Origin: Vicinamibacterales bacterium
GTDB taxonomy: Bacteria; Acidobacteriota; Vicinamibacteria; Vicinamibacterales; JAMQPK01
Reading direction: 5' to 3'
Assembly (NCBI GenBank): GCA_963744405.1
Contig: CAVUTO010000001.1
Span: forward strand, 52,339 to 116,338
Length of the DNA stretch: 64,000 nucleotides
How positions within the stretch are numbered: the stretch's first letter is position 1; every line of letters starts with the position of its first letter. Under the pieces are notes generated by a model. The model was given only the letters and a program-made list of their open reading frames with translations, had not been told where the DNA came from and ran no database searches. Positions 14,612 through 59,138 of the stretch are shown here, piece by piece. The translations under genes and the position numbers were made by a program.

Positions 14612-14688
14612 GCAGAAAAACTAGCACAGGAACGGCCGAAAGCAGAGGCATTAAGTGGAGGGCCGTTAACCGCGCTAAACTGTTGACT

Positions 14689-15504: not shown

Positions 15505-15522
15505 AAAGTGCAAAGCCGCTAG

Positions 15523-16432: not shown

Positions 16433-16489
16433 GGACGTTCCTTTCGGTGAGCCGAACGTTAGCGCTGAATGGCGTGCCCTGTCCACCGT

Positions 16490-16573
16490 GTCGTCACCGC
16501 AGAGACGCAGGGGCGCAGAGTTTCTTTTTCTTGAAGAAATTCTCCGCGTCTTCGCGTCTTTGCGGTGAAGACA
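16490..16573. repeat. REP-like palindromic element, family copy 3
   Basis: gtcgtcaccgcagagacgcaggggcgcagag - tttctttttcttgaagaaat - tctccgcgtcttcgcgtctttgcggtgaagac. It lies just downstream of the DUF1080 gene stop (16583). Confidence 0.8.
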
Positions 16574-16582
16574 TAGAAAGAC

Positions 16583-17143: not shown

Positions 17144-17145
17144 GC

Positions 17146-18048: not shown

Positions 18049-18130
18049 GGGCAGAGATTATAATGAGCATCTTCGGCGCGCGATCGGCGTCAAAACAAGG
18101 CAGAAACCCCACAGTTTGTCCTACATACCT

Positions 18131-25056: not shown

Positions 25057-26208
25057 TTAACCCGGCGACGATCCCTGCGTATTCGTGTACACCGCGTAGA
25101 GCGACTGCCCTGCGGCCATGAAGAGCCGGTTGCGCTTCGGGCCGCCGAAAGCGACGTTGGCGCACACCTCCGGCAAGCGGATGCGGCCGATCAATTTCCC
25201 CGCAGGGTTCCACACGGTTACCCCGCTGTAGCCGACATTGGCACCCGCGTTGCTGCTGGCCCACAGATTCCCGAACACGTCGGTGCGGATGCCGTCGGTG
25301 CGGCACGTGATGCCGTCGACCATGAAATCGGCAAACTGGCTGGGCTTGCCTACTTGATGCGCCGGCCCGACAACGTCGAGCACCGACACAAGACCGCGAT
25401 TCACGACGTACAGCCGCTTGTAGTCGGGCGAGAAGGTAATGCCGTTGGGGATGGCGCCGAGCGCCTCTTCGCTGATGACCATATCGATGCGGCCGCTCGG
25501 ATCGGCACGATAGACGTTGCAGCTCAACTCGCGCTTCAACACACCCGATCCCGCCGGCTGCCCTACCTTCGCATTGAGGCGCCCCTCCTTATTACTTGGA
25601 CCGCCCGCCGCGTCCGGCATCCCTTCGTAGAGCTGTCCGCCGTACGGCGGATCGGTGAACCAGTAGCTGCCATCCTGATGGCATGCGACGTCGTTCGGCG
25701 AGTTCAGCCGCTTGCCCTGAAACGAGTCGGCAATCACCGTGATCGAGCCGTCGTGCTCGTAACGCACAACGCGTCGCCCCGAGTGTTCGCACGAGAGCTG
25801 GCGTCCCTGATGATCGAACGTATTGCCGTTGCTGTTGCCCGACGGCTGCCGAAACACAGTGACGCGCGCGTCGTCTTCGATCCACCGCATCTGGCGGTTG
25901 TTCGGAATGTCGCTCCAGATGAGATATTGCCCCTGCCCGTTCCATGCGGGTCCCTCGCACCACATCCCGCCGGTCCAGAGCCGCTGGATCGGCGTGTTAC
26001 CGACTCGCAGCGCGTTGAACGACGGGTCGTGCGTGAGGATGTCGGGATCGGGATAGGTGACGGGCCCCGAAAAGTCGCGTGGCGGATTCGAGATGACGCT
26101 CGGCGGATCGGCCTTCTGCGCTGTTTGTGCGCTGACGAGGCGCGGAGCGAGTGCTGCGCCCGCGGCGCCGCCGATTCGGATTAAGGCTTCACGGCGAGAA
26201 AAACTCAT
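25057..26208 (-). CDS. SMP-30/gluconolactonase/LRE-family beta-propeller with Tat signal
   Basis: The start is ATG 26208 (RBS ggaggg): MSFSRREALIRIGGAAGAALAPRLVSAQ. It carries CEGPAWNGQGQYLIWSDIPNNR, PNDVACHQDGSYWFTDP and PNGITFSPD, typical of the family. The start overlaps the upstream gene end by 20 nt. Confidence 0.8.
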   Translation of the reverse strand: MSFSRREALIRIGGAAGAALAPRLVSAQTAQKADPPSVISNPPRDFSGPVTYPDPDILTHDPSFNALRVGNTPIQRLWTGGMWCEGPAWNGQGQYLIWSDIPNNRQMRWIEDDARVTVFRQPSGNSNGNTFDHQGRQLSCEHSGRRVVRYEHDGSITVIADSFQGKRLNSPNDVACHQDGSYWFTDPPYGGQLYEGMPDAAGGPSNKEGRLNAKVGQPAGSGVLKRELSCNVYRADPSGRIDMVISEEALGAIPNGITFSPDYKRLYVVNRGLVSVLDVVGPAHQVGKPSQFADFMVDGITCRTDGIRTDVFGNLWASSNAGANVGYSGVTVWNPAGKLIGRIRLPEVCANVAFGGPKRNRLFMAAGQSLYAVYTNTQGSSPG

Positions 26209-27709
26209 CCAACCCTCCGTCTTTGTACTTGTTCTGTATCGCCAGGATGTCGTCCAGGCACTCAAAGAATACATCGATGACACGGGGATCGAAGTGCTTG
26301 CCTCTGCCGTCGCGGAGTATCTGCAGCGCGTCTTCGTTTGGGAATGCCGGCTTGTACGGCCGCTCGCTCGTCACCGCATCGAACACGTCGGCCACCGCAC
26401 AAATCCGCCCCCACAACGGGATATCGCTGCCCACGAGTCCGCCTGGGTACCCGCCGCCATCCCAGCGTTCGTGGTGATTCAGTGCAATCACCCGTCCCGC
26501 TTGCAGGATCTGCGACGACGAGTTCTCGAGAATCCTGCCGCCGATCGCCGAGTGCTGCCGCATGACCTTCCACTCCTGCGTGTTGAGCTCTGCCGGCTTG
26601 CGTAGGATCGCTTCGGGCACGGCAATCTTGCCGACATCGTGCATGCGGCTCGCGTGAAGGATCAGCTCGACCTCTGAGGGCGGCAGCTTGAGGCCGCGCG
26701 CGATGACCGCGCTGTATTCGCTCATGCGCTGGATATGGTGGCCGGTGATCTTGTCTTTGTATTCGGCGAGGATCGCCAGCCGCTCGACCGTTTCGAGTTG
26801 TGCCTGGTACGCCACGCGCTGCGCCTCGGCCATATGCTCGAGCGCCTTGCGAAGGCTGACCGTGCGCTCTTCGCACATCGTCTCGAGGTGCGCTTGATAG
26901 CGTTTCACCTCGTCGTGCGCCATCTTCATCCTGAGGAGCGATGTCGTGCGGACGCGGAGCTCGGTCTCGTCGACGGGCTTGGCAATGAAATCGTTCGCAC
27001 CGGCTTCCACCGCGTGCAACCGGTGCTCTCTCGTCTCGAGGGTCGTCACCATGATGACTGGAACATCCCTGCCGAGCGGATCCTGACGGATGCGGCGGCA
27101 CACATCGAACCCGTCGAGCCCTGGCATGACCACGTCGAGGAGCACGAGATCGACGCCGAGATGAAGCTTCGCGAGTCCTTCGAGCCCGTCGCGGGCAGCT
27201 TCGACGTCGTGTCCGAGACCTTCGACGAGCATCTGCGTGATCCTTCGAATGCCCTCATCATCGTCGATGACGAGAATGCGCCTGCGGCCGAGGCCCGGAG
27301 GCGGCTGCTGCGAGCGATGCGCAGGAAGCGCCGCCCCGCCGGGCAGGGTCTCGGTCCAGCCGACGAGAGCTTTGCGGATGGATTCGATGCCCGACTCGAG
27401 CTGTGCCACCAGCGGAGTGACCTGGTCCAACGAGCCGCTGCGCGCGGTCTTGACGAGCTCGGCGCACGCGCGCGCGACCGACTCGGCGCCAACGATGGCG
27501 ACGCTGCCTTGCAGCGAGTGGGCTGCCCGATAGAGCGCTTCGCGGTCGCCTCTTGCAGCGGCGTTGCGGACGGCCTCCATCTGGCCCGAGCTCTCGCCCA
27601 TGAGCGAATCGATGAGCTGCGCGACCAGTCCGCGGGAACCGCGCGCCTCGAGACGGCGCAGGTGCCGAGTGACTTCGCCCGCGGGATCGAATGTGTGTCG
27701 TTGGTTCAC
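26189..27709 (-). CDS. Hpt - receiver - HD-GYP (c-di-GMP phosphodiesterase-type) response regulator
   Basis: Intact 506-aa ORF with GTG start. The Hpt-like N-terminus is REALYRAAHSLQGSVAIVGA. The REC domain reads RILVIDDDEG...DLVLLDVVMPGLDGFDV...IMVTT...FIAKP. The HD-GYP domain reads HHIQRMSEY...HDVGKIAVPEAIL...HHERWDGGGYPGGL. Confidence 0.85.
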   Translation of the reverse strand: MNQRHTFDPAGEVTRHLRRLEARGSRGLVAQLIDSLMGESSGQMEAVRNAAARGDREALYRAAHSLQGSVAIVGAESVARACAELVKTARSGSLDQVTPLVAQLESGIESIRKALVGWTETLPGGAALPAHRSQQPPPGLGRRRILVIDDDEGIRRITQMLVEGLGHDVEAARDGLEGLAKLHLGVDLVLLDVVMPGLDGFDVCRRIRQDPLGRDVPVIMVTTLETREHRLHAVEAGANDFIAKPVDETELRVRTTSLLRMKMAHDEVKRYQAHLETMCEERTVSLRKALEHMAEAQRVAYQAQLETVERLAILAEYKDKITGHHIQRMSEYSAVIARGLKLPPSEVELILHASRMHDVGKIAVPEAILRKPAELNTQEWKVMRQHSAIGGRILENSSSQILQAGRVIALNHHERWDGGGYPGGLVGSDIPLWGRICAVADVFDAVTSERPYKPAFPNEDALQILRDGRGKHFDPRVIDVFFECLDDILAIQNKYKDGGLDEFFSP

Positions 27710-27720
27710 CGTTGTGCCGT

Positions 27721-28239
27721 TTACCGTTTACCGTTCAAAGTTTGAAGGCGCTCGAGGGTATCGCTGCAGAAGCCCACGAGCTGTTCGGTTGTGAGATCCG
27801 ACGCGAACTCTTCGGTGAGCTGCAGCGTATGGCGCTCGCAGCCGCGCACGACATTCTCATACTCCTGGCACGCGCGCGCAACGTCGCCGCGCTCGCGGTA
27901 GAGGTTCCCGAGCCAGAAGTGCCCGAGCGCCAGTGAATCGTCCAGATAAAGCGCCCGGCGCAGCGACTGCACTGCATCTTCATGACGCTGGCGTCGCGCC
28001 GCGATCATGCCGAGCAGCAGATGCGCGCGCGCCTCCAGATCGTTCACTTTCAGTGCCGTCTCCGCCTTTGCCATCGCATCGTCGAGTCGCCCTCTATGAG
28101 CGTACAGGCCACCGAGCAACAACAATCCTGGCACGAACGTCGGGCACGCCTCGACGAGAGCAGTGAGCGCCAACTCGGCCCCGGCCCAGTCGCCCGCACG
28201 AAACGCGGCGAGGCAGGAATCGGTACTCGGTTGAGGGAT
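27721..28239 (-). CDS. TPR domain ORF, probably the C-terminal domain of the upstream CheR (WspC-like fusion broken by a frameshift)
   Basis: The frame is open from 28239: IPQPSTDSCLAAFRAGDWAGAELALTALVEACPTFVPGLLLLGGLYAHRGRLDDAMAKAETALKVND...HFWLGNLYRERGDVARACQEY. Its only in-frame start is TTG 28173 with no clear RBS. The CheR frame overlaps it down to 28094. Confidence 0.7.
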   Translation of the reverse strand: MPQPSTDSCLAAFRAGDWAGAELALTALVEACPTFVPGLLLLGGLYAHRGRLDDAMAKAETALKVNDLEARAHLLLGMIAARRQRHEDAVQSLRRALYLDDSLALGHFWLGNLYRERGDVARACQEYENVVRGCERHTLQLTEEFASDLTTEQLVGFCSDTLERLQTLNGKR

Positions 28240-29077
28240 TCACCGCTGACGAATTTGCCGTAGTGTCCGCCTTCAGGCGGACCTGCGCGGTCCGGCCAAA
28301 GCCGGACACTACCGATTTTGACGTGACCGGCGTTTGCGCGCCGTGCTCGCTCTTCCGATAACAAAACGCATGGTCGTGCTCGACAAGCGAAAAGTCCTCG
28401 GACACCTGCCAGAGCGACTCGGCGTGCCCCAGCAGCAGGAAGCCGCCTGGCGCGAGCGTATCGCGAATCCCTCCGATCAGCTTGCGTGTGACGTCGCCGC
28501 TGAAATATATCGCGACGTTCTTGCAGAACACGACGTCCTGCCGGCCTGTCGACGGCATCGGCGTCCGCGTAAGGTTGCCGAATTCGAAGTTGACGCGGCC
28601 CCGGATGGCGTCCTTCAGCACAAATGTTTTCCCATCGCCGACAAAATATTCGTCGAGCAGCCGCCCTTCAACATTACGGACGGCGCGCGCGGTGTACACA
28701 CCGCGGCGCGCCTTCTCGAGCGCCTCGCTGTTGAGATCCGTACCGATGATCTCGACGGTCCAGTCCGGGTGGGCTTGATACAGACCCATATCGTCGAGCG
28801 TGATGGCGATGGAATAGGCCTCTTCGCCGCTGGAGCAGCCGGCACTCCAGATGCAGATTTTCTTCGAGCGGTCCTCGTTCTTTGAACGCGCGGAGATCAA
28901 CGTCGGCACGATGTAATCGCGAAGGAGGCGGAACTGCGAGGCGTCACGGAAAAAGCAGGTTTCGGTCACCGTGACCAGGTTCAGCAGATTCCGCAGCTCG
29001 CTTTCGACGATGCCCGGAACAGCACCCCGCAATCGATAGAGGTATTCGTCTTCACTCAGAAGGCCAAGCTGCTGCAT
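28094..29077 (-). CDS. cheR: CheR-type chemotaxis protein methyltransferase (SAM-dependent)
   Basis: 327-aa ORF with TETCFFRD, ICIWSAGCSSGEEAYSIAI and VVFCKNVAIYF...LAPGGFLLLGHAES. The frame stays open upstream of ATG 29077 (IADLASFAAVRNLIEERCGLRFDDSQRGSLSDSVATR), so the true start is near 29170-29204 and overlaps the cheB end; no canonical start was identified there. The last ~75 codons (from about 28320) read through a 53-nt palindrome and are then out of frame with the TPR. Confidence 0.85.
   Translation of the reverse strand: MQQLGLLSEDEYLYRLRGAVPGIVESELRNLLNLVTVTETCFFRDASQFRLLRDYIVPTLISARSKNEDRSKKICIWSAGCSSGEEAYSIAITLDDMGLYQAHPDWTVEIIGTDLNSEALEKARRGVYTARAVRNVEGRLLDEYFVGDGKTFVLKDAIRGRVNFEFGNLTRTPMPSTGRQDVVFCKNVAIYFSGDVTRKLIGGIRDTLAPGGFLLLGHAESLWQVSEDFSLVEHDHAFCYRKSEHGAQTPVTSKSVVSGFGRTAQVRLKADTTANSSAVNPSTEYRFLPRRVSCGRLGRGRVGAHCSRRGVPDVRARIVVARWPVRS
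28260..28312. repeat. 53-nt nested palindrome inside the CheR-TPR linker
   Basis: The outer stem is gtagtgtc/gacactac. It encloses the hairpins ccgcc-ttca-ggcgg and tccggc-caaa-gccgga. The cheR frame translates it without a stop as VVSGFGRTAQVRLKADTT. Confidence 0.8.
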
Positions 29078-29175
29078 CCGCGTAGCGACCGAGTCAGACA
29101 GCGACCCTCGCTGGCTGTCGTCGAAGCGAAGCCCGCAGCGCTCCTCGATGAGGTTCCGGACGGCGGCAAACGAGG

Positions 29176-30276
29176 CTAGATCAGCGATCGCACACGCTCC
29201 ACATGCAGGGCTTTGAGGCAGCGGACGATGCCCGCTGGAGACAGCACTTGCTGCGCGGCGCCCAGTTCGGTGGCCGCTCGCGGCATGCCGAAGATCAGGC
29301 TGCTCTCTTCATCTTGCGCGATCGTGACGCCGCCCGCTTTGCGAATCGACAACAGCCCCTGGGCTCCGTCCGACCCCATCCCCGTCAGCAGCACGCCCGC
29401 CGATCGGGCGCCGTACACTTTTGCCACCGAGTGGAGCGTCACGTCAATCGACGGCCGGTGGCCGTTCACCGGCGCCGCATCCGAGAGGTGCACGCGTCCG
29501 CCGATGCCCACGACGAGATGCAACGCCTCGGGGGTAAACAGCACCCGCCGCGGCATGATGGCATCGCCTTCTTCCGCCACCTTGATCTGCAGCGCGCAGC
29601 GTTCGCGCAGCCACCGCAGCATGCTCGACGTAAACCCGTCGGTCATATGCTGGACGACGACGATGCCGAGCGCGTAGGTCGACGGCAGGCTCGACAGCAG
29701 CGTTTCGATGACGCGCGGTCCGCCCGAAGACGCGCCGATCGCCACCACGTCGGCGGCCGGGCCGTTATACGAGTCGGCCTGCGACGCTTCCTGTGCGAGC
29801 AGCTTACGCGCGCCGTGAATGTGCGCGATGACGGGCACTTTCGCGAGCGCCTTTACCTTCTGCACGAGCTTGCCGGCAGCGTTGTGCCACCGCCAGTCCG
29901 GCATCAGCGCGGGTTTCTCGACGACGTCGAGGGCGCCGGCCGCAATCGCATCGGCCCGCGAGTAGGTGCCTTCCTTGTCGAAGAACGAGCTCAGAAACAG
30001 CACCGGCGTCGGATTGCGGGCCATGATGCGGCGCGTGGCCTCCATCCCGTCCATGCCTGGCATCATCAAGTCCATCGTCACGAGATCGGGACGCAGCGTT
30101 GCCGTCATCTCGACAGCCTCGGCGCCCGTCGACGCCTGTCCTATGACGCTGATGTCGGAATCCGAGTTGAGCAGCGCTGTCAGCACCTCGCGGGTGACGG
30201 CCGAATCGTCCACGATGAGAACCCGCACGGTTGGCGGCCGGACGTCTGCCTGACCCTGGGCGTTTGCCTCAGACAT
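29176..30276 (-). CDS. cheB: CheB: receiver domain plus chemotaxis methylesterase
   Basis: ATG 30276 lies inside the last codons of cheA (8-nt overlap). The REC domain reads VRVLIVDDSAVTREVL...PDLVTMDLMMPGMDGME. The methylesterase domain reads VVAIGASSGGPRV..., GIVVVQHM, HRPSIDVT and LLTGMGSDGAQG. Confidence 0.9.
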   Translation of the reverse strand: MSEANAQGQADVRPPTVRVLIVDDSAVTREVLTALLNSDSDISVIGQASTGAEAVEMTATLRPDLVTMDLMMPGMDGMEATRRIMARNPTPVLFLSSFFDKEGTYSRADAIAAGALDVVEKPALMPDWRWHNAAGKLVQKVKALAKVPVIAHIHGARKLLAQEASQADSYNGPAADVVAIGASSGGPRVIETLLSSLPSTYALGIVVVQHMTDGFTSSMLRWLRERCALQIKVAEEGDAIMPRRVLFTPEALHLVVGIGGRVHLSDAAPVNGHRPSIDVTLHSVAKVYGARSAGVLLTGMGSDGAQGLLSIRKAGGVTIAQDEESSLIFGMPRAATELGAAQQVLSPAGIVRCLKALHVERVRSLI

Positions 30277-32550
30277 GACTGTTCTTTTTGGGTCGCGGGG
30301 ACTCCCCGTCCCGCGTCTCCCGATCGGCAGGCCGGCCAATCAGACGCCTGACCGTGTCGAGCAGGTGACTTTGATCGAACTCGCGCTTCAGCACGTACGC
30401 GTCGGCGCCGACCTCGAACCCCCGGCGGCGGTCGTCGATCGTGTCGCGCGAGGTCACGATGATGACGGGAATGTCGCGGAACTGCTCGTCTGCCCGCATG
30501 CGCTCGGTCAGCTCGAAGCCCGTCATCCGCGGCATGTCGACGTCTGCGATGACGAGATCCCAATCCTTGCGATGGAGGAATTCGAGCGCCTCGACGCCGT
30601 CGCTGGCAATCTCGGATTCGTAGCCGGCCGTGAGCAGAATGTTCTTCTGCAGCTCGCCGGCGACGAGCGAGTCGTCCACGACGAGCACCCGGTAAATGCG
30701 CGGAGCGGGCCGGCGCTGCATCGTCGGTGCGGAGGAGGGCGACGGCGCCCGCGACGCCAGATCGAAGAGCGCGTTCACGTCGAGAATCGGCACGATATCG
30801 CCATTGCCGAGCAGCGCCGCGCCGGTGAAGGTCTTCTGATTGCGGAGCGGACCGCGCAGCTCCTTGAACACGAGCTCCTGCTCTTCGTGCACCGCTTCGA
30901 CGAGGATGCCGAACCGTCCGTCGCTGCCTTCGGCCACGATCACCGTCTGACGCCCTGCCGACGGCGACGCGGGCACTCGCAACATCGCTGACAAGGACGT
31001 CAGTGAAATGCTCTCTCCGCCCACGTCCGCGACCGGGCCCTGTTGCAGTTGACCGATCTCGGCCGAGCCAACCTGCAGGATGCGCCGAACAGCGGCCGTT
31101 GGCAGAGCGAACAGCTCTTCGCCCGCCTCGAGCAGCACCACGCGAAGCAGCGCGAGCGACAGCGGCAAATTGAGCGTGATGCTGGTCCCTTTGTCGATCT
31201 CGGATTGGACGCGCACGGCGCCGCCCAGGCGCTCGACCACGCTCTTGACGACATCCATGCCGACACCGCGGCCCGAGACATCCGTCGCGGACGAGCGCGT
31301 GCTGAAGCCCGGCTGGAAGATCAAATCGACAAGCTGCTCGGGCGACCACCGGGCGATATCAGTTGCGGACGCCAGTTGCCGCTCGGTGGCCACGGCTCGC
31401 AACATGTGCAGGTCGATTCCAGACCCGTCGTCTTTCAGCGTTATCAGAATGCGGTTGCCCTGCTGCTCGGTTGAAAGGATCAGATGGCCGGCGGGGGGCT
31501 TGCCGAGGCGTTCGCGGACCTCAGGGGCCTCGATGCCATGGTCCACCGCATTGCGGATAAGGTGAGTCAGCGGCTCGGCGATCTGCTCGATGATTTTCTT
31601 ATCGAGCTCGGTCTCACGGCCGCGAATCTCGAGCTCGATTTCCTTGCCGAAGGTACGCGCCAGATCGCGCACCGCCCGAGGGAACGCGTCGAAGACCGAC
31701 GCGACCGGCAGCATCGTCAGCTCGATGACGTTCTGCCGCAGCTCTTCGGTGATGAGGTTCAGTCGCACGCGATCGTCGCTGAAACTCACCAGAAACTCGC
31801 GCAGGCGCCGCGTGACCGCATCGAGCCCATCGGCGTGCTCGGCGAGCTGTGCGCCGCGATCGATCTCGCTGGTTTCGGGCGTCAGACGCGCCTCGCGTGC
31901 GCGGTCGCGTAGCCGGCTGAGCATTCGCTCGAGCCGCCGCAGCTCGGTGTGCCGCTCGAACGCCTTGAGGCTCTGCACGACCATCTCGGGCGCCAGGTGC
32001 GCCAGCCTGTCGAGCTTTTCGATCGGCACGCGCAATGACTGGCGCAGCTCCGGCGCCTTCGGCATGCGTGTGCCGGGGTCTGACACCCGTATGTACGGGG
32101 GTCAGACCCCACGTGGGCGATCAGGCCGTCTTTATTGCGCGTTTTCGTCTCGGGGTCAGACCCCGACTGCAGCAAGGCGGCGAGCTGCTCACAGGTGTCG
32201 CCGACCTCGATGACATCCATGTGGCCGCGCGCGAGCTCTTCGATTCGTGACGCCACCCGGTCGACGCTCCCGAAGATGACGTCGAACGCGTTGCCGTCGA
32301 GAAGCGACGGGTTGGTCTTTGCGGCGACGAAGAGCTCTTCGAGTTGATGTGAGATCTGAGAGATGTCGGTGAACCCCAGCATCAGCGCCGAGCCTTTGAT
32401 GCTGTGTGCCTCGCGCAGCACCTCGGCGATGGCGTCGCCGGCTCCTGGCGTCTGCTCCAGCCGCAGCAACGCCGCGCCGAGCGCTTTGAGGCGATCGCGG
32501 GCTTCTTCGACGAACTTGCCGACGAATAAGGAGCTGTCTATCGAGTTCAT
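30269..32550 (-). CDS. cheA: Hybrid CheA histidine kinase (Hpt-dimerisation-HATPase-CheW-like-REC), one frameshift inside a REP-like insertion
   Basis: ATG 32550 gives the Hpt domain MNSIDSSLFVGKFVEEARDRLKALG...EAHSIKGSALMLGF. The frame changes near 32085, and the 605-aa ORF 30269-32086 follows. It carries SLRVPIEKLDRL, HLIRNAVDHGIE, LKDDGSGIDL and GFSTRSSATDVSGRGVGMDVV, then a CheW-like domain. The C-terminal REC reads YRVLVVDDS...DLVIADVDMPRMTGFE...IVTS...YVLKRE. Confidence 0.9.
32075..32164. repeat. Three GGGGTC(T/A)GACCCC words (one inverted pair plus one) embedded in the cheA Hpt-kinase linker
   Basis: ggggtctgacaccc (32075-32088) and gggggtcagacccc (32097-32110) form a hairpin around gtatgtac. 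A third copy, ggggtcagacccc, is at 32152-32164. A fourth, gggtctgaccc, lies in the cheW-cheA spacer (32602-32612). On the coding strand they read SGSDPE, VGSDPR and VSDPGT. Confidence 0.85.
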
Positions 32551-32621
32551 GCCGTCAGCCTGGCCGGATCGACCGCCCGACTTTCGATTTTCGCAAAAAT
32601 AGGGTCTGACCCTCCGGCTGC

Positions 32622-33113
32622 TCATACCTTCGTCACCTTGGCGAGATCGAGCAGTCCCATCAAACCGACTGTGACACGCGCCGCGCCGACGAAACAGGCG
32701 GTACGCTCGGCGGGCCAGGTCGCAGGCGGCGGTTCTATCTCGCCGGCCGAGACCGAATAAATGTCTGCGATCGAGTCGACGATGAGGCCGAGCGGATCGC
32801 CAAATCCGCGCAACGCCACGAGGAACGGCGATTCCGTCGACGTGGACGCAGGCAAGCCGAGAATCTCGCGCACGTCGAGCGCGCACAGAATCTCGCCGCG
32901 CAGGTTGACGAGTCCCGCAACGCCTACAGGGGCGCCTGGCACGCGGCGCAGATGATCGACGCGCGCAACTTCGCGCAACTGATGCAGCGGCAGTCCGTAC
33001 ACTTCCGTCCCCAGATAGAACCCCAGATACGGAACCCGTTCCTCTTCCTCGCGAGGCTCCACTTCGCTGTCGCGCTGCTGTTCGATCGCGGCAAGGATGG
33101 CGTCCGGATCCAT
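32622..33113 (-). CDS. cheW: CheW coupling protein
   Basis: ATG 33113 lies 8 nt after the MCP stop. The text reads MDPDAILAAIEQQ...YLGFYLGTEVYGLPLHQLREVARV...VGVAGLVNLRGEILCALDVREILGL...GLIVDSIADI. The 951-aa track ORF in this frame is a spurious 5' extension. Confidence 0.85.
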   Translation of the reverse strand: MDPDAILAAIEQQRDSEVEPREEEERVPYLGFYLGTEVYGLPLHQLREVARVDHLRRVPGAPVGVAGLVNLRGEILCALDVREILGLPASTSTESPFLVALRGFGDPLGLIVDSIADIYSVSAGEIEPPPATWPAERTACFVGAARVTVGLMGLLDLAKVTKV

Positions 33114-33121
33114 AGAGGCTC

Positions 33122-35071
33122 TTAAAGCTTGAACTCTTTGATTCGGGTTTTGAACTGGTCGGCCAGCAGGTTGAGCTCGCCGACGGAATTCGCCGATTGC
33201 TTCATGCCCGACGCCGCCTGTCTGGTCACCTCGGCGACTTCGCGCATCGTCTGCACGATCTGCTCGCTGGCGCTCTGCTGCTGTTGCGTGGCGAATGTAA
33301 TCTGGCGGATCGCCTGCGTGGTGCGATCGACCATCTGGATGATCTGCTCGAGGCTGCCTCGAGCGCGTGTGGCCAGCGACACACCGATTTCCACCTCTTT
33401 CACACCCTGCTCGGTCGCGAGCACCGACGTGTTGGTCGCCGACTGAATCTCGCCGACAATGCCTTTGATTTCTTCTGCCGACTCGCGCGTGCGCTCGGCC
33501 AGCCTCCGCACCTCGCTCGCCACGACAGCGAACCGCTTGCCGTGCTCGCCGGCAGCGGCCGACTCGATGGCCGCGTTGACGGCGAGCAGATGGATTTCGC
33601 CGGCGATGTCCTTGATGAGGTTGAGCACTTCTGAGATTCGCTGCGACCGCTCGCCCAGCAGCAGCGTCTTGCCGGAGATGTCCGCCACACGGCGGCGGAT
33701 CTTCTCCATCGCTTCGAGCGCCTCGCCGACAGAGTCGTAGCCGGCATGCGCCGCCTGCGCGCTGTCGTCGGCGATCTTCTCCACCGACGTCGCGCTCATC
33801 GCAATCTGCTTGGCCGTATTGGTCAGCTCTTCCATTGTCGCAGTGACCTGCGCGATCGAAGCGGCCTGCTGCACGGATCCGGATGCGTGCTCTTCGGCGG
33901 TCGTCAACACTTGCGTGGACGCGCCCGTGATCTGAATCGACGCGTGCTGCAGGTCCTGAAGCAGCTTGCGCAACTGATCGGCCATGTCGTTTGCCGCGTC
34001 GGCGAGCATGCCGAGCTCGTCGCGGCGCCCGATGGAAATGCCGTGAGAGAGGTCGCCGGCGGCCACCGACTTGAGGAACGGCACGAGCGACATGATCGGA
34101 CGCGAAAACTGCGTCGCCCAGTAGAGCGACCCCGCGGCGGCAAGCGTACCAAGCACGATTGACAACACGACGATGGCCCAGAGCAGGTTTCCAAGCGGTG
34201 CAAACGCCACATCCGTGCGCATCAACAGGATCGTCCGCCACGCGTCGGGCAGGTACGGGCGTTTCTCCGTCGTCGCGTAGCCAACCAGGTATGTCGAGTC
34301 GCGCACCTCGAGCTCGCCGCTGCCCGCCGGCGCGGTGGTGATCGTGCCGACGGAATCGAGCCCCAGCGCGTTCAGACGCGTTCGGCCGGGCTCCCAGCCC
34401 GACAGGAATGGCGGCGCCGCGAGGAGCACGCCCTGCGAGTTCGTCAATACCAGGTAGCCGCGCTCGTCCTGCCCTTCGGGGACCACGCGAACGGCCTGCA
34501 GCGTCGCCAGAACCTTCGGCCAGTCCAGAACCGCCACGAGCACGCCGACCGGCTTCGAGCGATCGAAGCTCGCCTGCAGCGGAAACGCAAGCGGCATTCC
34601 GATGCGGCCGGTCAGATCCTGCATCATGGGCAATCCTACCCACGACTCGCCTCGCCGCGCCGCCTGCAGGAACTCGCGGTCGCCGACTTCTCGACCGCGC
34701 AGCGTCGGCAACGTTGACGCAATCACGGTTCCGGCAGCGTTCGCGACCCAGTACTCCTGCGCCACGTCGGTGTTGCGCTTGGCTTCCAGAAGAAACTGCT
34801 GGATGCGGCCGTCGGCGTCGCCGGTCACCGCATCGTCGCGGATGAACCCGAGCTGCGACCACACCGCCAGATTCTGATGATGATCGAGCAGCAGCCGCTC
34901 GAGTTGCTCGTCGCTCTGCACCGCGAGCGTTTCGAGGTTGAGGCGGATGCGCTCTTCCAGCGCGCCGCGCGCAATCTGGTACGCAAGGATGCCGACCACG
35001 GCGATCGGCAGCAGCGACAACGCTACCGACACGAGCGCCAGCTGCCATCGGATGCTGAGTTTCAACGCCAC
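33122..35071 (-). CDS. Methyl-accepting chemotaxis protein with a Cache-like periplasmic sensor and HAMP
   Basis: Intact 649-aa ORF with GTG start and RBS agggaga. TM1 is LALVSVALSLLPIAVVGILAY. A ~270-aa periplasmic region and TM2 follow, then a HAMP domain. The signalling hairpin reads LLAVNAAIESAAAGEHGKRFAVVASEVRRLAERT. Confidence 0.9.
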   Translation of the reverse strand: MALKLSIRWQLALVSVALSLLPIAVVGILAYQIARGALEERIRLNLETLAVQSDEQLERLLLDHHQNLAVWSQLGFIRDDAVTGDADGRIQQFLLEAKRNTDVAQEYWVANAAGTVIASTLPTLRGREVGDREFLQAARRGESWVGLPMMQDLTGRIGMPLAFPLQASFDRSKPVGVLVAVLDWPKVLATLQAVRVVPEGQDERGYLVLTNSQGVLLAAPPFLSGWEPGRTRLNALGLDSVGTITTAPAGSGELEVRDSTYLVGYATTEKRPYLPDAWRTILLMRTDVAFAPLGNLLWAIVVLSIVLGTLAAAGSLYWATQFSRPIMSLVPFLKSVAAGDLSHGISIGRRDELGMLADAANDMADQLRKLLQDLQHASIQITGASTQVLTTAEEHASGSVQQAASIAQVTATMEELTNTAKQIAMSATSVEKIADDSAQAAHAGYDSVGEALEAMEKIRRRVADISGKTLLLGERSQRISEVLNLIKDIAGEIHLLAVNAAIESAAAGEHGKRFAVVASEVRRLAERTRESAEEIKGIVGEIQSATNTSVLATEQGVKEVEIGVSLATRARGSLEQIIQMVDRTTQAIRQITFATQQQQSASEQIVQTMREVAEVTRQAASGMKQSANSVGELNLLADQFKTRIKEFKL

Positions 35072-35089
35072 ATTCTCCCTGTCGCGCTC

Positions 35090-35518
35090 CTATTTGATCG
35101 GCATGACGCGGACGGTCTCGTCGACTTCGGATGGCGGCACGTACGAGATCGCGCCCGGCACGCCCGCCACGAACCGCAGTACCGCCCGGGCGGATCGCTG
35201 CGTCGAAGGAGGCGTCACACCCTGCGTCATCGACTGTTGCACCCAGTAGTCCTGCATCTCGCGAACCGTCCGGTCGAGCACATCCTTCGAGAAGACCGCA
35301 CGCATGTAATGCGTGCTGTCCCAATCGACCGGCACCATCGGTTCTCCGTGCGGCCACATCCGAGACTGCTTCATAAAGATGCGCCGCAGCTCGACCATGG
35401 TAAGCGACGTTACCGGATTCGCGTTGTTGACGATGACGACGAACGGGATGATCTCCGTGGACGCGTGCCCCGTCCACATCAGAACGATCAACGCCGCGGT
35501 CACGAACCTGCGTACCAC
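35090..35518 (-). CDS. Small periplasmic PstS/PBP-like substrate-binding-domain protein
   Basis: 142-aa ORF with GTG start and signal peptide MVRRFVTAALIVLMWTGHAST. The text reads FVVIVNNANPVTSLTMVELRRIFMKQSRMWPHG...GVPGAISYVP, which resembles the short PBP_like_2 proteins found next to sensors. Confidence 0.6.
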   Translation of the reverse strand: MVRRFVTAALIVLMWTGHASTEIIPFVVIVNNANPVTSLTMVELRRIFMKQSRMWPHGEPMVPVDWDSTHYMRAVFSKDVLDRTVREMQDYWVQQSMTQGVTPPSTQRSARAVLRFVAGVPGAISYVPPSEVDETVRVMPIK

Positions 35519-35523
35519 AGCGA

Positions 35524-36792
35524 TTAGAAGAAGAACACCGCTGCCAGCGCGATACCGTTGAAGGGCTTGCTCTCCTCCTCGCCTTCAGAGTGAAGGAAGT
35601 CGCGCTCCAGCGGCAACGATCGGTAGAGCTCGCCCTTCAACGCAATCTGTGGATAGGGCCGGTAATTCACGCCGGCAAAGTGCCGCCGCTCCGCCCTCTG
35701 AATTCTCGGGCTCTCGAGCTGCTCCCAGCGATAAAACGTAATCCAATCTTCGTCGATCCGATACGCCGGCTGGACGTAGTAGCCCGTGCGCGTCAGCCCC
35801 AACGAGTTGCCGCGCGCCCACTCACTCTGGAACAGGAACTGCGAAACCTCGAGCTGCGATTCGAACCCCCACACGTGGTCCTCCGCGAGCCCCTCGTCCC
35901 CAACCCCCACCCTGCCACGATACATATCCAGTGCCACGTCGAGACGCCTCAACGCGCCCTTCGCCGGGAAGCGAACTTCTCCGCGAGCGCCCCACGATTT
36001 GGCGTCGCTGCGGTCCGTGCGGCTGTTGCCCTCGACCTCGTTGTTGGCGACGTAGAACTTGTAGCCGACGCCGAGCTCTGACGTGCCGACCGGCTTCGCC
36101 GCTGACCCTTGCACCGTCACGCCGATCAGTTCCGCCGGGAACAACTCGCGGAGGTAGATAGGAAGAGCAGTCGACAGCGTGAGGTTTGGATAGTGGTTCT
36201 GCCACCAGTATTGTGGTGACAACTGCTTGCCAACCCGCACGCTCAAGAAGCGGTGGTGATTGTATTCCATCCACGCGTTCTCGACGGTCACCGGCCCCTC
36301 TCCGCTGATATCTTGTGCGCCGCCTTCTTCGGCCACGGGCTCCACCTCTTCGTCGCCCCCCGCCGAGATTTCGGAGTGGTGGGGAATGTTCTGAAGCTCG
36401 AGCTCCATGAGGAAGTTGAACTTGCCGAGCTGCTTGGCCATCAGCACGCCCAGGTGATGCTGCTGGAAGGCAATCGGCTCGTCGGAGCCATCGGCAAAGA
36501 ACCTGAAGTTGTAGTAGCCGTTCAGATTCACCTTGCTGTTGACGGTCTCGCGCAGGGAGGAGATGGAGTCTTCCTGCGCCTTGATGTCTTCCTCCAGATT
36601 CTCGAGGCTCTCGGCCACAGCCGACGCGGGCTGCTTCTCGATCGCCTCGATGCGCTTCAGCAGCTGCGCAATTACGACTTGTTGCTGCGCAAGCTCGGCG
36701 CGGAGGACGGCAATATCGCTCTGCTGGGCCAACAAGGGATGCGCCCCGCATACGAGCAGAGTTGCCACCACTAAGAGGAGAACGCGTTTCAT
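35524..36792 (-). CDS. Outer-membrane beta-barrel (porin-like) protein with an N-terminal coiled coil
   Basis: The start is taken at ATG 36792: MKRVLLLVVATLLVCGAHPLLAQQ. A heptad-rich segment (VLRAELAQQQVVIAQLLKRIEAIEKQ) follows, then alternating beta-strand-like sequence. The terminus is AAVFFF (OMP beta-signal). Confidence 0.5.
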   Translation of the reverse strand: MKRVLLLVVATLLVCGAHPLLAQQSDIAVLRAELAQQQVVIAQLLKRIEAIEKQPASAVAESLENLEEDIKAQEDSISSLRETVNSKVNLNGYYNFRFFADGSDEPIAFQQHHLGVLMAKQLGKFNFLMELELQNIPHHSEISAGGDEEVEPVAEEGGAQDISGEGPVTVENAWMEYNHHRFLSVRVGKQLSPQYWWQNHYPNLTLSTALPIYLRELFPAELIGVTVQGSAAKPVGTSELGVGYKFYVANNEVEGNSRTDRSDAKSWGARGEVRFPAKGALRRLDVALDMYRGRVGVGDEGLAEDHVWGFESQLEVSQFLFQSEWARGNSLGLTRTGYYVQPAYRIDEDWITFYRWEQLESPRIQRAERRHFAGVNYRPYPQIALKGELYRSLPLERDFLHSEGEEESKPFNGIALAAVFFF

Positions 36793-36905
36793 CGGGGCTC
36801 CTTCACACGATTGCATAGCGGTTCACGAAGACACACGCCCGCTGCTACCAGTTATCGGCCCAAGGGTGCCAATTCAGTACATCTGACCACGACCAGACAC
36901 GACCA

Positions 36906-36955
36906 GGGATTGGGGGTTACTTAGGGATTGGGGATTAGGGATAAGGGATTAGGGG
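36906..36955 (+). repeat. (GGGATT)-type G-tract repeat with seven G3-5 runs; G-quadruplex-capable
   Basis: gggattgggggttacttagggattggggattagggataagggattagggg. It overlaps the last codons and stop of the peroxidase gene (36949) and lies upstream of the chemosensory operon start (36792). The 16-mer ttagggattggggatt recurs on the minus strand at 14105-14120. Confidence 0.8.
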
Positions 36956-38454
36956 TGCGGCTTCTTCTCGCAGGCCTCGAACGTCAGCACCGCCAGCCCG
37001 CTCGGTACGGACTTCGGAATGAGGCCGCACAGTTTCCCTTTTTCCGCTCGCGGATCGAGCAGCCCGGTCTTGACGAATTGCGTGACATCCCGAATCTGCG
37101 GTTCCGACAGATCGATTCCGCCGTTCTGGAACAACGGATGGAAATACGATTCGTGGATGCGCGGTCCGATCCGGCGTCGAAGGTCTCTGTCTATGCCCGC
37201 GGTGTCGGGGTTGTAGGGCTGCGACGGGTCCAGGTGGAATCGAATCGCATCCTCGAGCCTCGCAAACGCGCCGTTGTGGAAGTACGCCGGCGCCAGCGCG
37301 ATGTTCCTGAGCGGCGCCGTGCGGAACTTGTACTTGTCGGCCGGATCGCCTGAAATCTGCATAGCGCCGAAGTCCTGATCGAAATCGGGACCGTCATACA
37401 CCATATTGCTCTTGCCGAAAGGCGGCGCGAGCTGGGGGATGCCGGCGACGTGATTCTCGAAGTCGCTGAACATCTCGTTCGACCGCCCCCTGGTCGCGTG
37501 GCACGCAATGCATTTGCCTTCGCCGAAGAACACGAGAGCGCCGCGCTTCTCCTCGTCGGTCATCGCGTTGTGCTGTCCACGCGCGAACCTGTCGATCGGC
37601 GCCGTGGCGAACGTCAGCGTGAACTCGAATTCGGCAATCGCGCGGCCAAACATGTCGAAGTCAATGGGCGCGCCGCGTTTCACTTCATGAAAGACCTTCC
37701 CGAACGCAGCCTGGTATCCGGGCGTCGTGTTGAAAATCTCAAGCACCTGCATCCGAATCGGATCGTTGCGGAATCCAGACTCGTCCGGCAACGGAACCGG
37801 CAGCCCCTTTCCATTGTCGAAGATCTCGAAGATTGGACTGAGGTCGGTGCCAGACGTGCCCGTGAATCCCGCCACTTCGACGAGCTCGGTCGGCGGAGTG
37901 AACGCCTGCGCCTGCAGAAGGTGATCGAGATAGCCCAGCGAGAGACCCTCGGGCGCCGGGAACGTGAACCCGAACATGTTGCTGAACGCATCGCCCAGCG
38001 TTCTTCCGGGGGCAGGGTTTGCGAAGAACCGGCCGTTCCACATCAGCTTCGGGTAGAAGGCGGTATTTATCACGAGCGGCGAGCGGCGCTGATTGCGCGG
38101 ACCAACGCGGTTCGGCCCGACGAGCAAATTGTTGTCGACGCCGATGGCAATCGACTGCGTGTCGCCAAAGCCGTTCGTAGGTGAATGACAGCCGCCGCAG
38201 GTGTTGTCGCGATGCAGCGATTGGACGTTGTCGAACCACAGCAGGCGGCCGAGATTTGCCAACTGATTGTCGATGCGACGTCCAAGCCGGTCTTCGAGGG
38301 TCGACTCCACGCGGCCGGTAAAACCGTGCTGACGAAGCACACGAGCGAGCCAGCCATCCAGGTCCGATCCGCGGCCATCGTCTGCAGAGACGACGAATCC
38401 GAGCGACAGCGCCAATATAACGCTGACCGCGATAACCAACTTTCCGGCTCTCAT
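36949..38454 (-). CDS. Di-haem cytochrome c peroxidase (CCP/MauG family)
   Basis: Intact 501-aa ORF with signal/anchor MRAGKLVIAVSVILALSLGFVVSA. It has two CxxCH motifs (NTCGGCHSP and GKCIACHA). Confidence 0.9.
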   Translation of the reverse strand: MRAGKLVIAVSVILALSLGFVVSADDGRGSDLDGWLARVLRQHGFTGRVESTLEDRLGRRIDNQLANLGRLLWFDNVQSLHRDNTCGGCHSPTNGFGDTQSIAIGVDNNLLVGPNRVGPRNQRRSPLVINTAFYPKLMWNGRFFANPAPGRTLGDAFSNMFGFTFPAPEGLSLGYLDHLLQAQAFTPPTELVEVAGFTGTSGTDLSPIFEIFDNGKGLPVPLPDESGFRNDPIRMQVLEIFNTTPGYQAAFGKVFHEVKRGAPIDFDMFGRAIAEFEFTLTFATAPIDRFARGQHNAMTDEEKRGALVFFGEGKCIACHATRGRSNEMFSDFENHVAGIPQLAPPFGKSNMVYDGPDFDQDFGAMQISGDPADKYKFRTAPLRNIALAPAYFHNGAFARLEDAIRFHLDPSQPYNPDTAGIDRDLRRRIGPRIHESYFHPLFQNGGIDLSEPQIRDVTQFVKTGLLDPRAEKGKLCGLIPKSVPSGLAVLTFEACEKKPHP

Positions 38455-38822: not shown

Positions 38823-39194
38823 TTAGCGTCGCCGGTTGAGAGCCCCGCGGATTTCGGCAAGCAGCGGACCGAAATCGGCAGCCTTCTTCACGAAGGCGTC
38901 CGGTTGCGGGTGTCGGACGATGTGATCGGGATCGTGCGGGTCGCCGGATGTAAGCATGATCACCGGCACCGCCTCGGTTGCCGGGTCGGCTCGAAGCGCG
39001 TGCAGGAACGAAAACCCATCCATGCCCGGCATGATGCTGTCGGTGACGATCACATCGGGCAGCGACTGGTGCACCTTCGCCAGGCCATCAGCGCCATTGA
39101 CGGCCGTGTCGACTTCGTACTTTTCGCTTTCGAGAATCATCCGCAGGAAGTGGACGATGGTCTCGCTATCGTCGACTATCAGCACTCGGCTCAT
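38823..39194 (-). CDS. Stand-alone CheY-like receiver-domain response regulator
   Basis: 123-aa ORF reading MSRVLIVDDSETIVHFL...DVIVTDSIMPGMDGFSFL...PVIMLTS...AFVKK. There is no output domain. Confidence 0.9.
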   Translation of the reverse strand: MSRVLIVDDSETIVHFLRMILESEKYEVDTAVNGADGLAKVHQSLPDVIVTDSIMPGMDGFSFLHALRADPATEAVPVIMLTSGDPHDPDHIVRHPQPDAFVKKAADFGPLLAEIRGALNRRR

Positions 39195-41222: not shown

Positions 41223-42898
41223 ATGAGAGCTCTGGCGATCGCCTCATCCCTGTTCGTCGCACTGTCGGTTGTCGGATGCCGGCCGGCGCCTGCCGAACAG
41301 CCGCCGGCGCCGACGACGACCGCGCCCCCTGCAGCCGCCCCACAACCGCCGCTCACCTTCGGCGCAGCATCATCACCCCATCCGTACGTCGAACGCCGAG
41401 GCGCAAAAGATGTTCGATCAGGGGATGGCGCAGGCTTTCGGCTTCAACCACGAGGCCGCGATCCGATCGTTCGAGCGCGCAGCCGAACTGGATCCGTCGG
41501 CACCGATGCCGCACTGGGGTAAGGCGTGGGCGCTCGGCCCGAACTACAACCTCGATATCGACGAAGCTCGCGCGAAAACGGCGTACGACGCGCTCGCGAA
41601 AGCGCAGTCGCTTGCCGCCACCGGAGCCGACAACGAGAAGGCATACGTCGAGGCTCTGGCCGTGCGCTACTCCACCGATGCGAAAGCCGATCGCGCCGCG
41701 CTCGCGCGCGCGTTCAGCCAGGCGATGGGCGATCTGTCGCGCCGGTATCCGGACGATCTCGATGCCGCCGTGATCTACGCAGAAAGCCTGATGAACCTGA
41801 CGCCGTGGAAGCTCTGGACGCCGGACGGCACAACCGGCGGCGAACACCGAGGACATCGTCACCGTGCTGGAATCGGTGCTGCTGCGCAGTCCGAATCACC
41901 TCGGCGCGAATCATTACTACATACACGCGGTCGAGGCTTCGCGCACGCCGGCGCGCGCGCTGGCAAGCGCACAGCGCCTGACCACGCTCGCAGAATCGTC
42001 GGGGCATCTGGCTCCATATGCCCGCGCACATTTACGCGCGCACGGGCGACCATGCAGGCGCCGCGGCGGCGAATGCGGCGGGCGCGGCAGCCGATCGCCG
42101 CTACCTGGTCACGCGCGCCGCCGAACGGGATGTACGGAATGATGTACTACCCGCACAACCTGCAGTTTCTCGCCGACTCGCACATGATGCAGGGACGATT
42201 CGCCGACGCGAAGCAAGCTGCCGATCGCGTGGCGGAGCACTTGAATCCGCACGCGGCGATGATGCCGATGGTGGAATCGGTGGTCGTCATGCCGGTGTCG
42301 GTCCTTCTGCGGTTTTCGAAACACGCCGACGTTCTCGGACTGCAGACTCCGCCCGCAGACCGACCCGTGCAGCGCGCCTGGCATCACTTCGCGCGTGGAA
42401 CGGCACTCGCCAAAACCGGCAGAGTGGATGAAGCCGCGGCGGAGAGAAAGCTGCTTGCGACGGCGATTGCGGCCGTTCCTGAAACCGCCGCATTCGGCGG
42501 AGGCGGGTGGGCGACGGCAGCAAGCGCGCTCAGCGTCGCCTCGCTCTCGCTCGACGCGCGTATCGCCGCAGCGCGCGCAGAGCACGATCGGGCGATCAAG
42601 TTCATGGCAGCAGGCGGTCGCGGCGGCCGATCAGCTTCCGTATGACGAGCCACCCGTGTGGTTCTATCCGGTGCGCGAGTCGCTGGGCGCCGCTCTGCTC
42701 TCCGCAGGGCGCGCGGCGGACGCGGAGCGTGTCTTCCGCGACGATCTCGTCAGGCACCCACGTAACGCCCGCTCGCTGTTCGGGCTGAGGACGGCTCTGA
42801 AGGCGCAAGGCAAGGAGGCGGATGCGGCCTGGGTGCAGCGCGAATTCGACGAGGCGTGGAAGAACGCGGATACGAAACTGACGCTCGACGATTTCTGA
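41223..42898 (+). pseudogene. TPR-like lipoprotein, about 5 frameshifts as assembled
   Basis: The lipoprotein signal is MRALAIASSLFVALSVVGC. The sensible text hops frames: NAEAQKMFDQGMAQAFGFNHEAAIRSFERAAELDP...; LESVLLRSPNHLGANHYYIHAVEAS; HMPAHIYARTGDHAGAAAAN; GMYGMMYYPHNLQFLADSHMMQGRF...; ADQLPYDEPPVWFYPVRESLGAALL...TKLTLDDF, with the stop at 42898. Confidence 0.6.
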
Positions 42899-59137: not shown

Positions 59138-59138
59138 C

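Follow-up and report, generated by a model that had tools for sequence, protein, structure and literature searches.

The textbook chemotaxis-type array that controls cyclic diguanylate (c-di-GMP) is Wsp, which acts through a cyclase. This Pseudomonas system (WspA–F and WspR) belongs to the alternative cellular functions (ACF) class of chemosensory clusters, whose reported hallmark is the pairing of CheR-TPR with a multidomain response regulator (PMC3447774). Two further described designs are RpfC/RpfG of Xanthomonas, in which a HisKA-HATPase-REC-Hpt kinase is followed by a REC-HD-GYP protein, and CtpL of Pseudomonas aeruginosa, a chemoreceptor to which a PstS-type periplasmic protein presents the ligand (PMC4926252). 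Here we analysed an operon of eight coding regions within a 64,000-nt stretch of DNA (the window, whose numbering is used throughout) from a Vicinamibacterales bacterium, a soil acidobacterium, and compared it with related database loci, which carry L-numbers (L001, L003, L084 and so on). We consider it fairly probable, from the sequence, that this locus is a lineage-conserved operon of the non-motility (ACF, Wsp-like) type and that its output protein, built of Hpt, REC and HD-GYP domains, is a cyclic-dinucleotide phosphodiesterase belonging to the binuclear-metal subtype. The operon probably switches on a c-di-GMP-degrading enzyme rather than steering motility.

Gene content and class of the operon

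A preliminary description of this DNA had listed eight consecutive genes on the minus strand. The open reading frame (ORF) listing and translation bear out eight coding regions, all on the minus strand, from 36792 to 26189, with intergenic spacings of 5, 18, 8, 71, −8, 14 and 11 nt from the porin gene to the output gene. The negative value is an 8-nt overlap of the cheB start with the end of cheA, as had been described, and the motifs quoted at the time (HSIKGS, HSLQGS, HDVGK and HHERWDGGGYP) are all found in the translations. A Pfam scan of roughly 40 window ORFs matched the five core components, MCP, CheW, CheA, CheB and CheR, in one cluster (5/5). The gene set and the gene identities are far beyond chance.

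The operon opens with the gene of a 422-aa outer-membrane porin (35524–36792), identified by a structure model and transitive homology, and that of a 142-aa secreted, single-lobe protein resembling periplasmic binding proteins (PBP), whose profile matches point to lobe II of PstS (35090–35518). Next comes a methyl-accepting receptor (33122–35071; MCPsignal, 1.6e-37), in which a dCache-like periplasmic domain and HAMP are followed by a 40-heptad signalling domain. The signalling domain aligns to the C-terminus without gaps with that of the 40H-type receptor PcaY_PP (6s18) and is 28 residues longer than that of Tsr; the receptor is 95% identical to its counterpart in L003. CheW follows (32622–33113; Pfam CheW, 7.5e-24). 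The cheA gene lies in two frames: the first part (32092–32550, frame −2) encodes the P1/Hpt domain, with the histidine in HSIKGS (Hpt, 1.6e-16; tblastn frame map), and a GSDP-rich linker, and the second part (30269–32091, frame −1) encodes the dimerisation, HATPase_c, CheW-like and C-terminal REC domains, supported by Pfam and the NCBIfam CheA models. In the Pfam scan, CheA matched Hpt, HATPase_c, CheW and Response_reg, and no P2 domain. CheB (29176–30276) consists of a REC and a methylesterase domain (CheB_methylest, 1.3e-58) and reaches 343 bits against a cut-off of 342 for NCBIfam PRK12555. The cheR gene is likewise divided, into a part encoding CheR_N and the SAM-dependent methyltransferase (28224–29161; Pfam CheR, 4.8e-51; tblastn) and a part in a shifted frame encoding the TPR domain (27721–28223; TPR families and alignment with L003). 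The last gene (26189–27709) encodes the 506-aa output protein, with Hpt, REC, a coiled linker and HD-GYP, as given by Pfam and an alignment with PmGH. The identities proposed earlier for the porin, the receptor, CheW, CheA-REC, CheB, CheR-TPR and the Hpt-REC-HD-GYP protein hold by Pfam, structure or homology.

This architecture fits a Wsp-like chemosensory system of the ACF class, with a role other than motility. The hallmark pair is present in the form of the CheR-TPR and the Hpt-REC-HD_5 output protein (Pfam), and the class is supported because CheA carries a REC and lacks P2, the receptor is of the 40-heptad type and no motility families were seen in the window. Neither flagellar nor pilus families were found among the roughly 40 ORFs scanned, as the preliminary description had stated for the 64 kb, and the Wsp-like core that it had recognised (receptor, CheW, CheR-TPR, hybrid CheA-REC without P2, CheB) was recovered in full. 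Nor were CheY, CheZ, CheC, CheD or CheV found in the cluster among these ORFs, and a stand-alone REC gene lies 2 kb upstream. An Rfam search returned no match.

The arrangement is conserved among relatives. The order is a MauG-like gene, porin, small protein, receptor, cheW, a small gene termed orf125 (not in all loci), cheA, cheB, cheR-TPR and output, and the genes downstream of the output gene (SGL, amidohydrolase and RND efflux genes) are conserved as well. Nine related loci, all apparently from Vicinamibacterales, retain this order with the flanking genes, so that the synteny from porin to HD-GYP, suggested earlier as a test, is borne out (L001–L004 and L084–L087; in part L093, L096 and L099). 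In full-length relatives, the output protein is 74–89% identical. Its best 120 database relatives (73–100% identity) carry Hpt, REC and HD_5 in 120 of 120 cases, and the named ones among them are Vicinamibacterales.

Some relatives differ in individual genes. The cheR gene is lost in L084 and L086, which keep cheB and the rest of the operon: L084 retains a fusion remnant of 110 aa (16612–16944), and no cheR is left in L086 (9942–10001). The pathway may thus run without methylation in some lineages. At the 3' end of the L084 cheA gene (about 15250–15487), three tandem 27-aa units (AADPRPLIRTRERRGAVGPRKRAGRSG) lengthen the protein to 838 aa.

We also scanned contigs with generic peptide patterns. 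Most of the matches listed were REC-HD-GYP genes of no relation to this locus; two among them, L004 and L005, were informative. L005 is a more distant relative, from an Acidobacteriota metagenome-assembled genome (MAG) contig of 0.85x coverage. In its segment 8492–10944, a HisKA-HATPase-REC-Hpt gene directly precedes a REC-HD-GYP gene whose product shares 70% identity with the output protein, and a partial CheR-TPR lies upstream. The Che core seems to have been replaced there by a classical hybrid kinase. In other phyla, two loci examined for a REC-HD-GYP gene beside che genes were rejected as examples of the same design. In L044 (Methylobacter), the REC-HD-GYP enzyme follows a MASE3-PAS hybrid kinase. 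In L067 (a Eubacterium MAG, 10307–20279), the che operon is of the flagellar type (cheR-cheB-cheY-cheA(P2)-cheW-mcp); directly upstream of it come REC-HD_5 genes, three in tandem, and the gene of a PAS histidine kinase.

The output enzyme and the route of the signal

The final protein had been described as an HD-GYP enzyme with its own Hpt and REC domains, and Pfam agrees on all three domains (Hpt, 5.7e-12; REC, 6.8e-27; HD_5, 3.7e-34). The best structural relative of its HD-GYP domain is PmGH (4mcw), with which it aligns without gaps (3e-51). Using the residue list published for PmGH (PMC4159591), we found D183, H189, H221, D222, K225, H250, H276 and H277, as well as G284-Y285-P286, D305, D308, R314 and K317, to be identical in the output protein, where they correspond to D319, H325, H357, D358, K361, H386, H412, H413, GYP 420–422, D441, D444, R450 and K453. 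These counterparts are invariant in a 12-sequence alignment of the family, with R450 at least 90% conserved. All catalytic and substrate-binding residues of PmGH, including the catalytic D183 and K225 and the RxxK motif, are therefore kept except the third-metal ligand E185, leaving seven of the eight metal ligands. Failure in HD-GYP models or loss of the metal ligands, either of which the preliminary description would have taken as a refutation, was thus not observed, and its other grounds for refutation did not apply as far as they were open to a check. The E185 position is occupied by Ile321 in the window and by Val or Ile in the family, with the T-G still following, and the E/D-T-G signature of trinuclear enzymes is thus incomplete. 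HD-GYPs without this carboxylate form a binuclear group that is reported to stop at pGpG (PMC4159591). Because the carboxylate is missing here, we assign the output domain to the binuclear type, and it is probably a c-di-GMP phosphodiesterase that goes no further than pGpG. The best NCBIfam model for the protein is a response-regulator c-di-GMP phosphodiesterase, below its cut-off. Upstream of the enzymatic domain, the phospho-acceptor set of the REC is complete (D149, D150, D192, T222 and K244) and varies little or not at all in the 12-sequence alignment, and the Hpt histidine H64 and the AHSLQG motif are invariant across the family.

From the observed gene identities, conserved residues and gene order, we infer the signal flow, the ligand and the substrate as follows. 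A periplasmic signal would act on the dCache receptor, possibly after entry via the porin and presentation by the PstS-like single lobe. The array of receptor, CheW and CheA would set CheA autophosphorylation on the P1 histidine, and the phosphate would reach the output REC either via the CheA REC and then the output Hpt (His-Asp-His-Asp, as in RpfC/RpfG) or directly from P1. The phosphorylated REC would activate the HD-GYP domain, and c-di-GMP would be lowered, probably only to pGpG, while CheB and CheR-TPR would give methylation adaptation.

The proposed entry of the signal depends on the two genes at the head of the operon. The porin, whose start codon (ATG, 36792) is preceded by the ribosome-binding site GAAGGAG, comprises a signal peptide, a long N-terminal helix (about residues 2–86), a 16-strand β-barrel and a C-terminal FFF. 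Its AlphaFold2 model (16 strands; predicted local distance difference test, pLDDT, 83.8) retrieved porins only when compared with the PDB by Foldseek (OmpC, Omp32, OprP and OprO at E about 1e-10), and its distant homologs match Porin_O_P (5e-9) and Porin_4 (5.9e-17). The porin-like barrel of the preliminary description is upheld by this model and these homologs, with no direct match of the protein itself to Pfam or NCBIfam. The small protein does resemble PstS, as had been claimed, but in one lobe only. It matches PBP_like_2 at E 1e-3, under the Pfam cut-off, and TIGR02136 at 8e-6 over profile positions 122–232 of 295, far below the family cut-off, and its profile matches residues 82–189 of PstS 4exl in the PDB (2e-6). 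Its close relatives are annotated as 'ABC-type phosphate transport system substrate-binding protein'. With 142 aa and one lobe, it lacks the two-lobe hinge that defines PstS and type II periplasmic binding proteins. The earlier suggestion that the porin and the small protein deliver the ligand is weakened, because a single PstS lobe is an incomplete binding protein; by analogy with PstS and CtpL, it is possible that the protein is a co-receptor.

We weighed the alternative that the porin and the small protein take no part in sensing and that theirs are envelope genes which simply lie beside, or are transcribed with, the others and might serve, for example, nutrient uptake along with the MauG-like enzyme; we give it real weight, short of an even chance. 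The small protein is without the second lobe needed for canonical ligand capture, the periplasmic MauG-like enzyme is equally conserved beside the two, and no evidence of contact between either protein and the receptor was obtained. However, the gaps that lead toward the receptor gene measure just 5 and 18 nt, and the two genes co-occur strictly in every relative examined, including those without cheR or orf125; CtpL furnishes a precedent for a chemoreceptor loaded by PstS (PMC4926252). The gene for the MauG/di-haem peroxidase-like protein (36949–38454, minus strand), which matched the MauG-like and MbnH-like models of NCBIfam at scores under the cut-offs, adjoins the porin gene in those relatives whose fetched DNA extends that far, and it may be part of the same unit. 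In the window, a 156-nt spacer (36793–36948) containing TAATCCC-type 7-mers separates it from the porin gene. About five copies of this 7-mer (TAATCCC and variants) occur at 36915–36951 on the minus strand, beginning at the stop codon of the MauG-like gene.

As for the route of the phosphate, a relay from the P1 histidine through the CheA REC and the output Hpt to the output REC is inferred by analogy with RpfC/RpfG. It gains indirect support from L005, a contig of very low coverage, because a HisKA-HATPase-REC-Hpt kinase is paired there with an orthologous REC-HD-GYP enzyme. In the alternative, direct Wsp-like route, CheA-P1 would phosphorylate the output REC with no relay, the CheA REC would be a phosphate sink, and the output Hpt would be a docking or dimerisation module or the entry point for another kinase or for the upstream stand-alone REC. 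In the literature, WspE activates WspR via REC phosphorylation and the RECs at the C-terminus of CheA homologs are regarded, for the most part, as phosphate sinks (PMC8846402, PMC10782961), which favours the direct route, as does the conserved REC gene 2 kb upstream. Yet the Hpt histidine and its AHSLQG motif are invariant in the family, which argues that the histidine is used, and the kinase-REC-Hpt arrangement of L005 speaks on the same side; we regard direct signalling as somewhat unlikely. The stand-alone REC in question is a CheY-like protein of 123 aa (38823–39194, minus strand; Response_reg, 9e-21), with a sigma-70-like promoter match (10/12) directly upstream at 39234–39206. Its gene is conserved beside the MauG-like gene in L084, L085 and L086, and it could be a CheY-like partner of the pathway.

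That the output domain controls no c-di-GMP, and instead hydrolyses for example 3'3'-cyclic GMP-AMP (cGAMP) or acts mainly via protein–protein contacts, is quite unlikely: the cGAMP-specific V-cGAP3 (5z7c) does match strongly (1e-35), the family is without the E185 ligand and no GGDEF gene was seen among the window ORFs scanned, but the closest structure is the c-di-GMP enzyme PmGH, the residues contacting c-di-GMP (Y285, R314 and K317) are all kept, and the top NCBIfam model, though under its cut-off, is that of a c-di-GMP phosphodiesterase.

A lost ninth gene and one-base frame shifts

The 71-nt gap between cheW and cheA, whose length had been given correctly, is the remnant of a ninth gene rather than a plain spacer. 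Eight relatives or partial loci (L001–L004, L085, L087, L093 and L096) carry a gene of 125–138 aa, orf125, at this place, with start and stop codons overlapping those of its neighbours. Alignments with L003, L085, L084 and L086 delimit a remnant of 75 nt in the window (32551–32625, minus strand), in frame with cheA. What is left is the ATGA by which the gene start overlaps cheW, a stretch of 45 nt (GGGTCAGACCC TATTTTTGCGAAAATCGAAAGTCGG) and the final codons. A remnant of the same structure is present in L084 and L086, and half of orf125 is deleted in L099. In a distance tree of five concatenated proteins, the window pairs with L003 and L084 with L085, and both L003 and L085 have an intact orf125. 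The gene was thus lost independently at least three times, since the losers stand beside intact loci, and its loss between cheW and cheA is real and recurrent in the clade.

The retained 45-nt piece represents one half of a palindromic repeat, about 50 nt long and dispersed (GGGGGTCAGACCCTCTTTTTACGAAAATCGTAAAAAGAGGGTCTGACCCC), which also occurs at unrelated intergenic sites of soil metagenomes. With the T-run that accompanies it, the repeat resembles a terminator. It was located at 32585–32613 in the window, at 12919–12945 in L084, 12992–13018 in L085 and 6628–6654 in L086, and in L089, L091, L094, L095 and L098. In intact orf125, the repeat half occupies a variable loop, and it is plausible that this recombination-prone repeat lies behind the recurrent deletions. 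The gene product has about 350 relatives, none of them named and none with a Pfam domain. A second CheW was considered for it and left unproven: there was no Pfam match, no match of a 27-sequence profile in the PDB, and hhalign against CheW gave E values of 0.3 and 0.63.

The preliminary description had also listed cheA and cheR with no mention of an interruption; each is split by a one-base frame shift. The range given for cheA (32550–30269) measures 2282 nt, which is no multiple of 3, and the gene is distributed over two ORFs (31882–32886 and 30269–32086). Compared with the intact L003 ortholog, the gene is a single base short between 32092 and 32091. The lesion falls in the loop of a palindrome (32075–32110, 17-nt arms, minus strand) inside the P1–P3 linker, with an RNA fold z of −4.6; in L003, the palindrome has perfect 18-nt arms and is in frame. 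With a single base inserted, the gene encodes a CheA of 760 aa that shares 85% identity with the L003 protein (757 aa). In cheR-TPR (ORFs 28094–29077 and 27721–28173), one extra C at 28222/28223, again by comparison with L003, shifts the frame between the methyltransferase and the TPR domain, and its removal restores a 479-aa protein. The first canonical start of cheR is ATG 29077, and the GTG start used by L003 and L085 is GTC in the window; cheR of L087 is likewise called from the equivalent internal Met, so the missing canonical start is not specific to the window.

Both linkers contain palindromic elements. A GGGGTCTGACCCC motif, akin to the dispersed repeat, occurs three times in the cheA P1–P3 linker (32075–32110 and 32152–32164), twice in palindromic form, and is translated as GSDP repeats. 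In the CheR-TPR linker, a 53-nt palindrome (28260–28312, minus strand; RNA fold z −6.0) that resembles a doublet of repetitive extragenic palindromic (REP) elements consists of two hairpin units with GTAG heads (GTAGTGTCCGSC...) and is in frame. REP-like insertions were rejected as the cause of the frame shifts: in cheR the palindrome is in frame and the shift lies 40 nt downstream, at CC, and in cheA the palindrome is kept in frame in L003, the window being without one loop base only.

The same kind of lesion recurs elsewhere. Using intact proteins of relatives as probes, we located one-base frame shifts in the OEP efflux gene (at 22867), in two conserved genes (41365–42895, at 42603; 46539–47506, at 46705 and 46752), in a LigD-type ligase gene (within 57641–57701) and in the gene of a TonB-type outer-membrane protein (within 9972–10105), and a further probable one in an IorB-like gene near 12400–12700. 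With cheA and cheR, this makes at least eight one-base shifts in 64 kb, or about one per 7–8 kb. Every one of them is flanked by well-conserved coding sequence, with no nonsense mutations or larger damage. L001, a related contig of the same assembly series, is far more fragmented. A single ENA assembly series, in which contigs are named 'contig_N', supplied several of the relatives, and L004 is an 'MFD' MAG, a label that we take to denote a long-read soil project. The shifts at OEP 22864, cheR 28223 and cheA 32093 fall exactly at GTAC, and probably so does that in the ligase (57676). As a rule for all shifts, an error linked to methylation of GTAC was rejected, given that 42603, 46705 and 46752 are not at GTAC, and the pattern is partial. 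These observations suggest an assembly prone to error and probably made from long reads, in which some of the errors are perhaps linked to a motif. At about one frame shift per 7–8 kb, the operon cannot safely be read as eight unbroken genes.

Sequencing or assembly errors very probably account for the frame shifts of cheA and cheR, because at least six further one-base shifts hit unrelated conserved genes. That the operon is instead a decaying, non-functional relic in this bacterium, in which both shifts are real mutations that followed the loss of the small gene, is very doubtful: orf125 is truly deleted in the window and half deleted in L099, two related lineages lost cheR outright, the cheR GTG start is GTC and the palindrome loop in cheA is a plausible slippage site, but the same lesions also hit, at six or more sites, the genes of the OEP efflux protein, the TonB-type protein and the LigD ligase as well as two further conserved genes (a single one of these twice), nonsense mutations and larger damage are absent, and the halves of cheA and cheR are 78–86% identical to intact orthologs.

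Several points nevertheless weigh against the reading of the locus as an ACF operon with a cyclic-dinucleotide phosphodiesterase output. The ACF assignment is one of architecture, and dCache_1 and HAMP score below the Pfam cut-offs in this copy of the receptor. The small protein has one PstS lobe and a structure model of pLDDT 42 (shallow alignment), leaving a ligand-binding role unsupported. The REC that receives the phosphate and the use of the output Hpt are putative, and HD-GYPs may be cGAMP-specific, as V-cGAP3 among the matches is, or may act by protein binding. A hairpin with a T-run between cheW and cheA is terminator-like, and co-transcription of the operon is putative. Finally, the cheR shift and the absent GTG start could be genuine decay, since L084 and L086 lost cheR.

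Away from the operon, a DNA-repair cluster (56377–62069) contains a LigD primase-polymerase gene and two ATP-dependent ligase genes, one of them frame-shifted. Near this cluster lies a polyphosphate kinase gene (44993–46300), without the N-terminal domains in that frame.

Comparison with known systems

Taken to its full extent, the locus would encode a complete module from the outer membrane to the second messenger, with a dedicated porin, a small and possibly anionic solute, a single-lobe PstS co-receptor, dCache, CheA, a four-step relay and HD-GYP; we regard this whole as rather unlikely. If it were true, the Vicinamibacterales that abound in soil would reduce their c-di-GMP through a system as sensitive and adaptive as a chemotaxis array, a mirror image of Wsp. 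A conserved counterpart of Wsp that acts through a phosphodiesterase would place adapting arrays on both sides of the c-di-GMP balance, in a phylum, the Acidobacteriota, that is dominant and poorly cultured in soil and has almost no characterised signalling. The Hpt borne by the regulator offers a testable case of a multistep relay fed by CheA, and what non-motility arrays sense may be approached through the porin and half-binding-protein conserved with it.

Literature searches retrieved no characterised chemosensory pathway with an HD-GYP output. The combination itself has been catalogued: Table S2 of PMC3447774 (2012) lists, for Desulfatibacillum alkenivorans AK-01, a CheR-TPR cluster with a 'REC - HDc metal dependent phosphohydrolase' regulator. 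This organism belongs to another phylum, and the comparison is with the table entry only, in which an Hpt, a porin or a PBP partner is not noted.

With Wsp, the operon shares the receptor, CheW, CheR-TPR, CheA-REC without P2, CheB and an enzymatic regulator with a c-di-GMP domain; Wsp has no CheY or CheZ, and neither was seen in the cluster of the window among the ORFs scanned. The two differ in the output, which in Wsp is the REC-GGDEF cyclase WspR and here is an HD-GYP protein with an extra N-terminal Hpt and no GGDEF. They also differ in the dCache-like sensor of the receptor, in gene order and in the porin and PstS-lobe protein at the operon head. Whereas Wsp has two CheW couplers (WspB and WspD), the window has one, and its relatives carry the unclassifiable 125-aa gene at that place.

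RpfC/RpfG has in common with the operon the REC-HD-GYP terminal acceptor and a set of two His and two Asp sites, and RpfG is likewise without the third-metal carboxylate although T-G follows (PMC4159591). L005 has exactly the RpfC-like layout with an orthologous REC-HD-GYP enzyme. The kinase of the window differs from RpfC in being a receptor-coupled CheA with methylation adaptation, and the Hpt is on the regulator, not on the kinase. CtpL offers a parallel for the small protein, although its PstS is a complete two-lobe protein encoded elsewhere, in contrast to the 142-aa single lobe encoded beside the receptor here. The operon can thus be described as a Wsp-like front end joined to an RpfG-like back end, set apart by the Hpt that its regulator carries and by the porin and PstS lobe conserved with it.

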